In this document: positions 1,580 to 30,818 of the stretch, one piece after another | How positions within the stretch are numbered: the first letter of the stretch is position 1 | Layout: each line of letters begins with the position of its first letter | Program-made: the position numbers and the translations under genes | IMG/VR virus record: IMGVR_UViG_2565956711_000013 | Coordinates: 1-30,818 of that record | Length of the DNA: 30,818 nucleotides | Source of the DNA: a virus | Lineage: Duplodnaviria > Heunggongvirae > Uroviricota > Caudoviricetes | Strand: one strand, 5' to 3' | Notes under the pieces: model-generated | Told to the model about the DNA's origin: nothing | Seen by the model: only the letters and a program-made list of their open reading frames with translations | Database searches by the model: none

Positions 1580-1612
1580 TTTTGAACATTTCAGGCTATT
1601 TTTCTCGCGTTA

Positions 1613-1647
1613 GGTTCCCGCACAGGTTCCCACGTTTTATGGGAACC
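1613..1647 (+). promoter_or_regulatory. Cluster of 7-bp repeats in the integrase leader (two direct, one inverted); possible Int arm site or operator
   Basis: ggttccc at 1613-1619 and 1625-1631, and its reverse complement gggaacc at 1641-1647 (9-nt loop), just upstream of the int RBS (gagg 1657-1660) and ATG 1668. Confidence 0.35.
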
Positions 1648-1667
1648 CGAAATAACGAGGTCGTGTA

Positions 1668-2765
1668 ATGGCGTACTATAACATAGAGAAACGACTAAAA
1701 TCCGATGGCACACCACGCTATCGCTGTAATGTGATTATCAAAGAAAAAGGTGTTATCACTTACAGGGAAAGCAAAACATTCCCTAAACATGCTCATGCCA
1801 AAACATGGGGCACACAGAAAGTGATGGAATTAGATCTATATGGCATTCCATCATCAAATGCAGTTGACGGACTTACAGTCCGTGACTTACTACACAAATA
1901 TTTAAATGACCCAAATGCCGGAGGTAAAGCAGGCCGTACTAAAAGATATGTGCTGGAACTGCTTATGGATAGTGACATCTCCGCGATCAAACTATCTGAA
2001 CTGACAGAAAATGACGTAATTGAACATTGCAGGCTAAGAAACAACGCTGGCGCAGGTCCAGCAACAGTCAGCCACGATGTTAGTTATCTTGGCAGTGTTC
2101 TGGATGCGGCCAAACCTGTATACGGAATTAATTACACATCAAACCCGGCGAAAAGTGCTCGCCCATATCTACTTAAACTTGGTTTGATTGGTAAATCAAA
2201 CCGTCGTAATCGTAGACCAGCATCTGATGAACTGGACATGCTCATTGAAGGCCTTCAACAACGATCTACTCATAAATGCTCAAAAATTCCGTTCGTTGAT
2301 ATCCTCAAATTTTCTGTGTGGTCCTGTATGCGAATCGGAGAAGTATGCCGGTTACGATGGGAAGATCTCGACCAGGAACAAAAATCTATACTCGTAAGAG
2401 ACAGGAAAGATCCACGCAAAAAGGAAGGCAACCACATGAAAGTAGCCTTGCTTGGGGAAGCCTGGGATATCGTCCAACGACAGCCCAAAAAATCGGAATT
2501 CATTTTTCCATATAACAGCACTTCTGTTACTGCAGGATTTCAGAGGGTAAGAAGCAAATTAGGTATTAAAGATCTGCGATACCATGATTTGCGTAGAGAA
2601 GGGGCAAGTCGCTTATTTGAGGCTGGTTTTAGTATTGAGGAAGTCGCTCAGGTTACAGGGCATCGTTCATTAAACGTGCTATGGCAGGTATATACCGAAC
2701 TGTATCCGAAATCTTTACATAATCGTTTTGAAGAGCTCCAAAGGAGCAGAAATAAGACCTCTTGA
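1668..2765 (+). CDS. int: Tyrosine-type site-specific integrase, dusA-associated
   Basis: 365-aa ORF; C-terminal catalytic region with RYHDLRR and GHRS...Y consistent with a tyrosine recombinase; divergent from and immediately next to the 5' end of dusA. Confidence 0.85.
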   Translation: MAYYNIEKRLKSDGTPRYRCNVIIKEKGVITYRESKTFPKHAHAKTWGTQKVMELDLYGIPSSNAVDGLTVRDLLHKYLNDPNAGGKAGRTKRYVLELLMDSDISAIKLSELTENDVIEHCRLRNNAGAGPATVSHDVSYLGSVLDAAKPVYGINYTSNPAKSARPYLLKLGLIGKSNRRNRRPASDELDMLIEGLQQRSTHKCSKIPFVDILKFSVWSCMRIGEVCRLRWEDLDQEQKSILVRDRKDPRKKEGNHMKVALLGEAWDIVQRQPKKSEFIFPYNSTSVTAGFQRVRSKLGIKDLRYHDLRREGASRLFEAGFSIEEVAQVTGHRSLNVLWQVYTELYPKSLHNRFEELQRSRNKTS

Positions 2766-2813
2766 CACTGTTTATCCATACAGTTAAAAATAATACTGTA
2801 TACAAACACAGTA
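2762..2813 (+). promoter_or_regulatory. Promoter with two LexA (SOS) boxes upstream of the DinI-like gene
   Basis: -35 TTGACA at 2762-2767; two CTGT-N8-ACAG motifs at 2768-2783 and 2796-2811, the second (TACTGTATACAAACACAGTA, 2794-2813) close to the LexA consensus; RBS gaggg 2816-2820. Confidence 0.65.
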
Positions 2814-28557: not shown

Positions 28558-28880
28558 ACTTTCAGGCCCCTCTCATGTAACCAGTGGGCTGCACGCAGCC
28601 TGGCGTTTGCCTCACCGGCAAGCAGTGCGCGGATAATCCCGACCGCCTCGCTGTCGTCGTCCTTCACCGCGGTATGAAGCGTGATGCCCCGGGCCACGCC
28701 ACGCTTTATCGTGATGACGCCTTTTTTCTCCAGTGCGCGAAGATGCTCCACCGCTGCATTCACTGAACGGTATCCCAGCATGGTTGCCACCTCCTGATTG
28801 GTTGGCGGGAAGCCACGTTCTTTCTGATAAGAAATCAGCATATCCAGCACCTGCTGCTGGCATTGAGTTAACGTCGTCAT
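28554..28880 (-). CDS. LexA N-terminal DNA-binding-domain homolog with no peptidase domain, 108 aa
   Basis: Aligns by eye to the LexA winged-helix domain (LTQCQQQVLDML...GFPPTNQEVATMLGYRSVNAAVEHLRALEKKGVI versus LexA LTARQQEVFDLI...[34 protein letters not shown]); too short for the S24 autocleavage domain; start and stop overlap neighbours as ATGA. Confidence 0.7.
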   Translation of the reverse strand: MTTLTQCQQQVLDMLISYQKERGFPPTNQEVATMLGYRSVNAAVEHLRALEKKGVITIKRGVARGITLHTAVKDDDSEAVGIIRALLAGEANARLRAAHWLHERGLKV

Positions 28881-29530
28881 GCCGCCATCTCCCTGACCAG
28901 TTTTTCTGCCTGCTGGCGAACCTGCGCCAGAAAGGCCTCACCACATGCCTCAAGTTCATCGCGCCCGATGTAGCTGATTGCCGGTCCCTTCCAGGTCTTG
29001 TCGAAAACAGCAATAGCACCAGCGAAGAAAGCTCCTGTCGGCACCTGCTTCTCATCCTTCGGGATAAACCAGGCAGGCAGTTCAAAACCAATACGCCCGC
29101 GAATAAAAGCAATATGATCTGCATCTTCCGGCCACCACACTTCGCTGGTGGCAGCTTTGATCAGGAAAACATAGCGCCCGCCTTTATCACGCATGGCACT
29201 GGCATGCTTCATGATGTAACGCATGCCGGTGATGTATTGCCCCTCATGCTGACTGGCGCGGCTGTATGGGGGATTACCAAAGGCAGCACCTTTAAGCTCC
29301 GCAAGGCGTTCTGACCAGTCATGCGCCAGCGCGTTGTCTTCCGCCGTGTAATACGCAGCACATTTGGCGTTATCACCGTCAGTGAACAGATCCAGAACAA
29401 ACGGGCCAAACAGGGTGTTAATTCCCCAGAAAATGTTGTCCGGCGTGCGCCACTGATCGCCCACTTCCTTCAGTTCATGGGCTGGTTTGTTCCGCAGTTC
29501 CGCCAGCGCCTGGCAATATTTATTACTCAT
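28877..29530 (-). CDS. Phage DNA N6-adenine methyltransferase
   Basis: Track ORF 28877..29563; likely start ATG 29528-29530 overlapping the upstream stop (TAATG); motif IV-like GNPPYS. Confidence 0.75.
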   Translation of the reverse strand: MSNKYCQALAELRNKPAHELKEVGDQWRTPDNIFWGINTLFGPFVLDLFTDGDNAKCAAYYTAEDNALAHDWSERLAELKGAAFGNPPYSRASQHEGQYITGMRYIMKHASAMRDKGGRYVFLIKAATSEVWWPEDADHIAFIRGRIGFELPAWFIPKDEKQVPTGAFFAGAIAVFDKTWKGPAISYIGRDELEACGEAFLAQVRQQAEKLVREMAA

Positions 29531-30024
29531 TAAGCCCCCACGTAATTCCCTGAGAGATACCACTCTTCACCTGATGCAGCCCGCTTACTGCTTTTCCGTA
29601 AACACCGTTCACGACGCGCCAGAAAATTGTTTCGTTCTGGCTGGGAGTGGCTTTCACGGAATGCCGCCATCCACACCGTTGCAGCACGACGGTATAAGCC
29701 CCTCGACTCCAGTTCTTCAGCCTGGCGGGTCAGGCACAAAATCACCCGGGGGTCGTTAGTGCCGACATAGAACTTGCGCACAGGTCTGGTTTCACGAACT
29801 GGTTGTGGTTCCGGCTCCTGCGCTCTCTCAGTCAGGCGCGAGAAATGTCTGCGTGTATCTCCTTCACAACGGTGAGCCACACGCCCACTCTGACGTAACT
29901 TGCTTGCTGACTGCAGAACGCGCTGCCGTGAGTAACCTGCAAAAGCATCCGCAATGTCTCCGGAAGTACACCCCGGATGGGCTTCAATGAATTTCTGAAC
30001 TTCATTCAAAAGACTCATGATCAC
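29530..30024 (-). CDS. ANR/PerC-like regulator with N-terminal extension
   Basis: 164 aa; the C-terminal half (AEELESRGLYRRAATVWMAAF...RRERCLRKS) resembles the PerC/Pch-type regulator motif. Confidence 0.5.
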   Translation of the reverse strand: MIMSLLNEVQKFIEAHPGCTSGDIADAFAGYSRQRVLQSASKLRQSGRVAHRCEGDTRRHFSRLTERAQEPEPQPVRETRPVRKFYVGTNDPRVILCLTRQAEELESRGLYRRAATVWMAAFRESHSQPERNNFLARRERCLRKSSKRAASGEEWYLSGNYVGA

Positions 30025-30818
30025 CCCCTGAATCCTGCCGGGATCTGGCTGTAGTCCACGTTGTCGTAACTGGATTTGAAGTACGGATCTTCACGTTTTT
30101 CTGTGTATGTGCTGACGGACGGCGATAAGCGCAGGGAAAGCTCATCCCATTTTTCCCGCAGCTTCGACGGGCTGAGCACGTTACGGCACCAGAACGGATC
30201 GCGGCTGACGCGGCTGTACATCTCGCAGATTTGTTTGTGAGTACGACCATCCTGCACACACATCAGGCGAATTTCGTTTGCCCAGGCTGTCCAGTTCGGT
30301 TCTTTGGGACGAACCACCTCGCCGTCACATTCGGCAGCCTGCTCGTACAGGGCGATGATTTTTTTCCAGAGCCACTGTGCGCAGGTCAAATCATCCTGCG
30401 TCCCCCACTGGCGTTTTTTAGGGCTGAATACAACCGCATCAGGATGGCGAGTTAAAAAATCCTGTTCAGCCGTCTGCGTGTCCGGTTGCGAAGCGTCCGG
30501 ACGAGAAGGTTTTTTATCTGACGGATCATGTTTTGATTTTACTGACGGATCCCCGCCAGATTCTGACGGGTGAAAACCCGCTTTTTTGCCAGATTTCGAC
30601 GCATCAAATTTTGACGGGTCAGATTTTGATGCGTCAGATTTTGACGGGTCAGAATCTGACAGTTGAGAAAATGCCGCTGCCTGAAGCTTCGCAACGTTAA
30701 GCTGATAAACATTCGACGCATTGCGGTTACCCTGGCGACGCGCCTTACGCGTTAACCAGCCTTCTGCTTCCAGCCGTGCGATAGCCGTTCTGACGGTACT
30801 CATCCCCGCGCCAATCTG
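30021..30818 (-). CDS. Replication initiator-like protein (5'-truncated by the window) with internal iteron-encoded linker
   Basis: The frame stays open to the window edge upstream of the track's Met at 30803; an HTH-like N-terminal segment, a low-complexity repeat linker (SDSDPSKSDASKSDPSKFDASKS) encoded by tandem DNA repeats, and a C-terminal domain; architecture parallels lambda O. Confidence 0.45.
   Translation of the reverse strand, partial: QIGAGMSTVRTAIARLEAEGWLTRKARRQGNRNASNVYQLNVAKLQAAAFSQLSDSDPSKSDASKSDPSKFDASKSGKKAGFHPSESGGDPSVKSKHDPSDKKPSRPDASQPDTQTAEQDFLTRHPDAVVFSPKKRQWGTQDDLTCAQWLWKKIIALYEQAAECDGEVVRPKEPNWTAWANEIRLMCVQDGRTHKQICEMYSRVSRDPFWCRNVLSPSKLREKWDELSLRLSPSVSTYTEKREDPYFKSSYDNVDYSQIPAGFRG
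30516..30662. repeat. Iteron-like tandem repeats (putative origin of replication) inside the initiator gene
   Basis: About 8 copies of (T)TGACGG / TGATGCG cores, including three near-perfect 15-bp units gtcagattttgaYgSg at 30616-30660; cores form short dyads (TGACGGGTCA). Confidence 0.5.

Follow-up and report, generated by a model that had tools for sequence, protein, structure and literature searches.

An SfV-type prophage at the Escherichia coli dusA gene and its passenger genes

The temperate phages related to SfV (NC_003444), among them SfI, SfII and SfIV, are mosaics already described in the literature: SfV has a Mu-like tail (PMC4542187), the head proteins of all four have been assigned to the HK97 family (PMC3851460), and in censuses of E. 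coli and Salmonella prophages the "SfV-like" phages make up a separate group, the "lambdoid Myoviridae" (PMC3603311). Integrases specific for dusA are also known, and these put DNA of the element in place of the dusA 5′ end, with semi-conserved direct repeats of ~21 bp forming attL and attR (PMC4482086). Here we describe positions 1 to 30,818 of the IMG/VR record IMGVR_UViG_2565956711_000013 (hereafter the window, meaning the whole stretch of 30,818 nucleotides that was analysed). The window contains a prophage with a Mu-like contractile tail, an HK97-like head, lambdoid late control and a dusA-type integrase, and we are confident that positions 1476–30818 are the left three-quarters of a ~39.7 kb temperate phage of the SfV family inserted in the 5′ end of E. 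coli dusA.

Relationship to SKA5 and SfV

Positions 1–25000 of the window are colinear with the genome of E. coli strain CE0021a at 99.4% identity, where pspG and dusA likewise flank the element. In the window these two chromosomal genes (pspG, 166–408; dusA, 542–1579) lie ahead of the prophage. From the integrase onwards (1668–2765, plus strand) nearly all genes are on the minus strand, in the order tail fibre and chaperone, baseplate, DNA-circulation protein, a small gene of low GC content, tape measure, tube and sheath, neck, capsid, protease and portal, terminases and HNH, a single plus-strand gene, lysis, Q, six genes in the nin position, and an O-like gene.

The closest relative is Escherichia phage SKA5 (OR670062), whose host is an avian pathogenic E. 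coli. Matches in blastn extend over 1476–3179, 4527–22531 and 23320–30818 at 93–98.7% identity and together account for 27,208 of the window's 29,343 prophage bases (92.7%). Every protein of the window was also compared by tblastn with the genomes of Mu, HK97, lambda, SfV and SKA5, and 41 of the 43 prophage genes are 78–100% identical to SKA5 at the protein level. The two phages have in common the integrase (identical in amino acid sequence), a dusA 5′ fragment at attP, the DinI-like gene, the passenger gene orf164 (99%), the tail, head and packaging genes, the GH19 lysis cassette, orf85, Q, the nin-position genes and the O-like gene. They differ in the interval 3180–4526, where the invertase of SKA5 is intact and its tail fibre segment invertible, but the window has a dead invertase and another fibre C-terminus and chaperone.

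SfV itself matches in DNA at 4527–9844 and 10503–22118 (~97.6% identity) and at 25483–30096 (95%). All genes from the small terminase through baseplate gp48 are 91–100% identical to SfV in protein sequence, and Q is 100% identical. SfV and the prophage thus have the same HK97-family head, Mu-type tail, P27-type terminase with an HNH gene across cos, and gene order. SfV differs in having the O-antigen genes gtrA, gtrB and gtrV, a xis gene adjoining int, a lambda-type S/R lysis pair and a DNA methyltransferase gene after Q; it lacks orf164, the DinI-like gene, orf85, orf113 and orf66, and its replication protein is different from the O-like protein of the prophage.

The first-pass annotation had remarked that this combination of modules differs from those of lambda, P2 and Mu themselves, which is correct, and had implied that it was new. 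A novel mosaic type, distinct from described families and assembled from Mu, HK97 and lambda modules, would also be consistent with the NCBI taxonomy, in which SfV and SKA5 are both assigned to Caudoviricetes alone, with no genus. The same combination in the same order is present, however, in SfV (structural genes 91–100% identical) and in SKA5 (~93% of the DNA), the group already has a name in the literature, the element and its dusA flank are found in at least 41 of 5,426 complete E. coli genomes, and relatives of the integrase are encoded at 174 IMG/VR loci. Published descriptions already set out the SfV-type mosaic architecture; the module combination is not new, and a novel type, which the database comparison refutes, is very improbable. 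That comparison, which the annotation had named as a check, returned a near-identical phage (SKA5, at 92.7% of the bases) and the SfV structural block, although no function has yet been assigned to the small cargo genes.

Several points nonetheless weigh against a simple reading of the locus as a known, functional SfV-family phage. The window stops ~10.3 kb short of the far end of the ~39.7 kb prophage, and the immunity region, the excision functions and attR are seen solely in the 99.4%-identical CE0021a. The corresponding part of that genome encodes Rha-like, YmfL, cro-like and cI-like proteins, early genes of the yfdPQR type, an exonuclease, a PrtN-family protein and a Panacea-domain pair. 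The description "well characterised" fits SfV and not the closest relative, SKA5, on which a literature search found no paper. A simple promoter scan did not flag the PR′-like promoter proposed below. Finally, the invertase is dead and the alleles of the fibre C-terminus and chaperone differ from those of both SKA5 and SfV, and therefore host range and fibre switching differ.

The finding of an SfV-family prophage re-describes a phage family known since 2002, whose sequence is in public databases many times over. It does provide a clean case of an SfV-type phage that uses a dusA-specific integrase instead of the SfV integrase and gtr cassette, such that the integration and cargo module has been swapped while the virion and late-control modules stay nearly unchanged. 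The remaining biology of interest is in four small passenger genes, above all the exported and position-conserved orf164.

Integration into dusA

Two features define the left end of the prophage:
1476–1579, minus strand: phage-derived replacement of the dusA 5′ end, the first ~35 codons (alignment of attL, attP and attR)
1668–2765, plus strand: tyrosine integrase of the dusA-specific type, divergent from dusA (Pfam Phage_integrase)

The left boundary, which the first-pass annotation had placed at 1580, the position after dusA, is instead inside the gene. When the dusA 5′ region of the window is aligned with the attP region of SKA5 and with the dusA 5′ pseudogene fragment that lies at a distance of 39.7 kb in CE0021a, the crossover falls at ~1476, in agreement with the blastn match. 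The window tracks the SKA5 attP sequence up to ...ATGCTCGA at ~1476, with chromosomal dusA after it, and the attL core, ...TCGGTTTAGCATTGCTCCTATGCTCGA, ends at about the same position. At attR in CE0021a the displaced original 5′ end of dusA is followed by phage DNA. The att cores (attL of the window and attR of CE0021a) are identical at 24 of 27 positions and form semi-conserved direct repeats. The phage gives dusA a new promoter-proximal end and ~35 codons, and dusA therefore stays intact; the open reading frame (ORF) is of 345 amino acids, and at 10 of the first 34 positions its residue is not that of the original 5′ end now displaced.

Divergent from dusA, the integrase gene begins 88 bp upstream of that gene's start codon. 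It behaves as a dusA-specific integrase, with recombination at a semi-conserved core inside dusA, and on this point the earlier annotation was right. Its product is only 22% identical to the SfV integrase, and SfV integrates at a tRNA-Thr gene. Among the 174 IMG/VR loci that encode relatives, the best 80 are 89–100% identical, and a search of NCBIfam with the integrase gave only generic, sub-threshold Xer or integron matches. The elements described by Farrugia et al. (2015; PMC4482086) likewise have a tyrosine integrase gene adjoining the 5′ end of dusA and a replaced 5′ end. Those examples come mostly from islands of Acinetobacter and Pseudomonas and from P2-like prophages rather than SfV-type phages, and the likeness drawn here is one of behaviour. 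A dusA prophage of Pf-5, Prophage 03, was suspected of being SfV-like and was dropped, as it is listed as P2-like.

We note that in CE0021a a Panacea-domain protein and a small hypothetical gene are encoded just inside attR (L003 11491–12539), outside the window. The pair looks like a toxin-antitoxin or defence-type pair.

Virion, late control and replication modules

The structural and packaging genes occupy one largely continuous block:
4823–9820, minus strand: baseplate genes gp48/YmfQ, gp47/Baseplate_J, gp46, gp45/V and gp44/P, and the gpN DNA-circulation gene (Pfam)
10505–15323, minus strand: tape measure, tail assembly chaperone, tail tube, tail sheath, DUF2635 (Mu gp38-like) and tail terminator (Pfam, NCBIfam)
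15320–19822, minus strand: neck and head-tail connectors, HK97-family major capsid protein, S78 prohead protease, portal and the small orf53 (Pfam, PHROG 879)
19819–22531, minus strand: large terminase, P27-family small terminase, cos region and HNH (22181–22531) (Pfam; blastn to SfV)

The tail genes are in Mu order (gp38, L, N, P, gp45–48) with 29–42% identity to Mu. The baseplate and gpN genes are 98–100% identical to SfV and SKA5 and 29–42% to Mu; the genes from tape measure to terminator are 98–100% identical to SfV, and the sheath and gp38 are 36% and 42% identical to Mu, respectively. Pfam matches in the tail include the sheath domains, Tail_tube PF10618, DNA_circ_N, the Mu GpP-like baseplate hub and Baseplate_J. 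The Mu-like contractile tail of the first-pass annotation is thus borne out, as is its HK97-like head with an HNH gene beside the terminase. For the head and packaging genes there are Pfam matches to Phage_capsid PF05065, Phage_portal PF04860, Peptidase_S78, Terminase_4, TerL and HNH. The portal (27%), TerL (25%) and HNH (32%) proteins match those of HK97 in tblastn, and the major capsid protein and protease are linked to HK97 at the Pfam family level only. The head genes are 91–100% identical to SfV, and the portal, S78 protease and PF05065 capsid are 99–100% identical to SfV orf3–5.

Although Mu, HK97 and lambda have homologous modules, the prophage does not have the Mu transposase or head, the HK97/lambda siphovirus tail or the lambda nin homologues, and none of the window proteins has a tblastn match to Mu head or transposition genes or to the lambda or HK97 tails. 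A Mu-like transposable phage is ruled out by this gene content. The same is true of an R-type tailocin cluster, a reading that deserves mention in that tails of the SfV/Mu type have been co-opted as tailocins in Pseudomonas (PMC4542187). Genes for head, portal, terminase, replication and integrase are lacking in tailocins but present and intact here, and the tailocin reading has next to no probability.

On the window, the two ends of the linear SfV record fall at 22118/22119. This point lies between the HNH gene and the small terminase gene (which extends up to 22051) and is the expected position of cos from the SfV alignment. HNH genes adjoining cos and terminase genes are a common arrangement (PMC3592412).

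The remaining modules of the SfV-family prophage lie to the right of the packaging genes:
23289–25088, minus strand: lysis cassette of two holins, a GH19 endolysin and Rz/Rz1 spanins (Pfam, RefSeq names)
25437–25575, minus strand: late control region directly downstream of Q, with a candidate PR′-like promoter and a terminator-like hairpin
25576–26328, minus strand: Q antiterminator (Pfam Antiterm PF03589 and a zinc-finger motif)
26342–30024, minus strand: nin-position genes encoding DUF968/HNHc, KilA-N, RusA, LexA DNA-binding-domain-only, Dam and PerC-like proteins (Pfam; PADLOC MTase_II)
30021–30818, minus strand: O-like replication initiator, its N-terminus cut by the window end (PHROG 391; 31% to lambda O)

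The holin and endolysin of SfV differ from those of the prophage lysis cassette. Besides its identity to SfV Q, the Q protein is 35% identical to lambda Q and 34% to the HK97 antitermination protein. A terminator scan found a terminator-like hairpin with a U-run at 25447–25468, and a possible PR′-like promoter, TTGCAT-17-TAGGAT, was picked by eye. The layout is lambdoid, in that the O-like gene, Q and the lysis genes follow one another in the window, and cI-like and cro-like genes are seen in CE0021a only, beyond the window end. The nin-position genes are 86–99% identical to SfV, and the RusA and Dam genes match HK97 genes of the corresponding region; no homologue of lambda NinB–NinI was found by tblastn against lambda. 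The lambdoid Q-lysis-nin control proposed earlier therefore stands for Q, whereas "nin" is positional only. The earlier statement that the window ends inside the replication gene is correct, and the O-like gene has origin-like iterons (15 nt × 4.3 at 30590–30653, from a tandem-repeat search).

Judging from the families to which these proteins belong, SOS induction would lead to loss of the cI-like repressor, which lies outside the window, and hence to rightward early transcription. The O-like protein may act at its internal iterons and fire the iteron origin, and polymerase modified by Q would read through the terminator downstream of Q. A single leftward late transcript would then run through orf85, the holins, the GH19 endolysin, Rz/Rz1, orf66, HNH, cos, the terminases, head, tail and tail fibre, and the HNH and P27-type terminase proteins would cut cos for packaging. 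The passenger genes would be morons: the DinI-like gene would be driven by the LexA boxes, and orf164 and orf113 would have signals of their own and probably function in the lysogen.

There are two minor observations in these modules. One of the nin-position genes (28554–28880, minus strand) encodes a 108-residue protein with the LexA DNA-binding domain and without the cleavage/dimerisation domain, 95% identical to SfV orf42. Also, a hairpin with a U-run is present between the tape-measure region and the DNA-circulation gene in both the prophage (9828–9890) and SfV (~11620–11650), a terminator-like signal inside the tail operon that presumably needs a Q-modified polymerase to pass.

Variable spots and passenger genes

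Four spots vary relative to SKA5 and SfV, each of low GC content (0.31–0.43 versus 0.52 overall): 2766–4526, 9845–10502, 22532–23319 and 25089–25575. Their contents are:
2766–2785 and 2794–2813, plus strand: two LexA-box-like sites upstream of the dinI-like gene (pattern search)
2827–3075, plus strand: DinI-like gene, an SOS-regulated passenger (Pfam DinI)
3184–3384, minus strand: remnant of a dead Gin/Pin-type DNA invertase (translation)
3450–4819, minus strand: tail-fibre assembly protein (3450–3809; PHROG 188) and tail fibre (3806–4819; PHROG 18834/1396)
9911–10405, minus strand: orf164, a predicted exported passenger in a 658-bp insertion (9845–10502) relative to SfV
22671–23012, plus strand: orf113, a lone opposite-strand near-ORFan of 113 amino acids
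23065–23265, minus strand: orf66, a small, very acidic late-operon protein (PHROG 9518)
25168–25425, minus strand: orf85, the first gene after the late terminator (PHROG 3501)

No RNA family was found in an Rfam scan of the whole window, nor any tRNA gene in a tRNA scan. PADLOC, run on ten candidate cargo and regulatory proteins, gave a strong match for the Dam methyltransferase only, two weak partial matches, and no defence system.

In the first spot, 2766–4526, SKA5 holds its intact invertase and invertible segment and SfV the gtr cassette. No gtr homologue is present in the window, and the interval between integrase and fibre contains the DinI-like gene and the dead invertase, so that the prophage is not one of the Shigella serotype-converting subset. 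The LexA pattern search gave three matches at two sites, where 0.13 are expected by chance. The DinI-like protein is 99% identical to that of SKA5, and its score against NCBIfam PRK10597 is below the cut-off of that family. There are hints, from the LexA-domain protein described above and from this gene with its LexA boxes, that the phage tampers with the SOS response.

The invertase remnant reads YVRVLT at the catalytic serine motif (a Ser to Leu change), has an internal stop and is missing its C-terminus. Invertase genes of other phages match it at 91% identity, and RefSeq annotates the equivalent as a pseudogene. No inverted repeats are present in 2700–5000, and thus no inverted crossover sites are seen there. 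In the tail fibre the N-terminal ~97 residues are conserved in the family, homology to SKA5 and SfV ends at 4527, and the C-terminal part is a different allele. These features bear on whether the element is a defective (cryptic) SfV-type prophage that makes no infectious particles and is kept by the host for its passenger genes. The decay of the invertase by substitution, stop and truncation would fit such a history, as would the RefSeq annotation of fibre fragments next to the invertase as pseudogenes in CE0021a. However, invertase is dispensable, the tail fibre and chaperone genes are intact ORFs with full-length PHROG matches, and the head, tail, packaging, lysis, Q and replication genes of the window are all of full length, with 100% coverage relative to SKA5. 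A cryptic prophage is accordingly unlikely, and we favour a temperate phage of the SfV family.

A direct repeat (18 of 20 positions) is present at 3082–3101 and 4274–4293. The first copy is beside the dead invertase, in a 36-codon ORF named "capsid protein" by RefSeq, and the second encodes an ADLTDFT motif in the tail-fibre gene. The repeat probably derives from a former invertase crossover site or alternative fibre end; its orientation is direct, not inverted.

The gene orf164 is the most unusual passenger. Its GC content is 30.7% and that of the insertion ~31% (0.309), compared with 0.519 for the prophage. The product has an N-terminal signal peptide, a conserved small-x-small cleavage motif and two invariant cysteines. 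PHROG 8976, of unknown function, is its sole family match, with none in Pfam, NCBIfam, PADLOC or PDB sequences. A search of 50,697 phage records found it in no phage other than SKA5 and Pantoea phage AH07 (42% identity in the latter), and it is present in 85 of the 5,426 E. coli genomes. Homologues at 54–66% identity, likewise flanked by the tape-measure and DNA-circulation genes, are found at the matching position of diverged SfV-type tail clusters in an Atlantibacter genome (L008 6001–6495) and several metagenomes (related loci L011–L014). It is therefore a position-conserved accessory gene and not a one-off insertion. The AlphaFold model is confident (mean predicted local distance difference test score, pLDDT, 85.8) and has no informative structural neighbour; a BFVD search gave one match, to an unannotated-type protein of 180 residues, and a profile search against PDB sequences gave nothing significant. 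A hairpin and U-run are located downstream of orf164 (dG −22.3, z −2.24), and upstream there is a perfect TATAAT without a convincing −35 element, where a promoter scan found no promoter.

The orf164 product is predicted to be exported, and a protein that is exported cannot belong to the virion. By analogy with the HK97 moron gp15, whose gene adjoins that of the tape measure (PMC3594210), a reasonable guess is a periplasmic role, e.g. exclusion of incoming related phages by blocking DNA entry. More generally, the unassigned passengers may include a gene for a new protective function carried by the prophage; this is a tentative proposal with a rather low chance of being right, for which orf164 would be the better candidate and orf113 the second.

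The spot between HNH and the lysis genes (22532–23319) contains orf113 and orf66 here, no gene in SfV and one unrelated gene of 106 codons in SKA5. orf113 has no match in Pfam, PHROG, PADLOC, NCBIfam or PDB and no tblastn match in the 50,697 phage records. It is found in two of the 5,426 E. coli genomes and as one cluster among 5.8 billion proteins, and a single true relative, 39% identical and also of 113 residues, came out of an exhaustive HMMER search over 1.84 billion representatives. The near-identical Salmonella copy and this distant relative (loci L015 and L017, both at 6001–6342) each stand alone, antisense to the phage operons on either side. Because it is antisense to the flanking operons in all copies, orf113 is probably expressed in the lysogen. 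Its structure model is unreliable (N-terminal pLDDT <50) and too poor to search. The product of orf66 has an isoelectric point of 4.05, with 13 Asp/Glu and 2 Lys/Arg residues; the gene is absent from SKA5 as well as SfV, and is present in 26 E. coli genomes including Nissle 1917, which has a prophage relative at 87% nucleotide identity. The fourth spot, the slot after the late terminator, is one in which lambdoid phages often carry passengers, and contains orf85, 98% identical to SKA5.

It had been proposed that a small unassigned or cargo gene marks every junction between modules. Several spots conform to this, but there is no passenger at the head-tail boundary (14584–16576), where genes overlap or abut, nor in the 13 nt that separate Q from the DUF968 gene. 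Nor does the rule account for the cargo at 9911–10405: orf164 sits inside the tail operon and not at a module junction. The Atlantibacter SfV-type tail cluster (L008 7980–9778) has two extra genes, of 506 and 93 codons and without Pfam matches, between the DNA-circulation and baseplate-hub genes, and this insertion is a second passenger slot in the SfV-type tail cluster.

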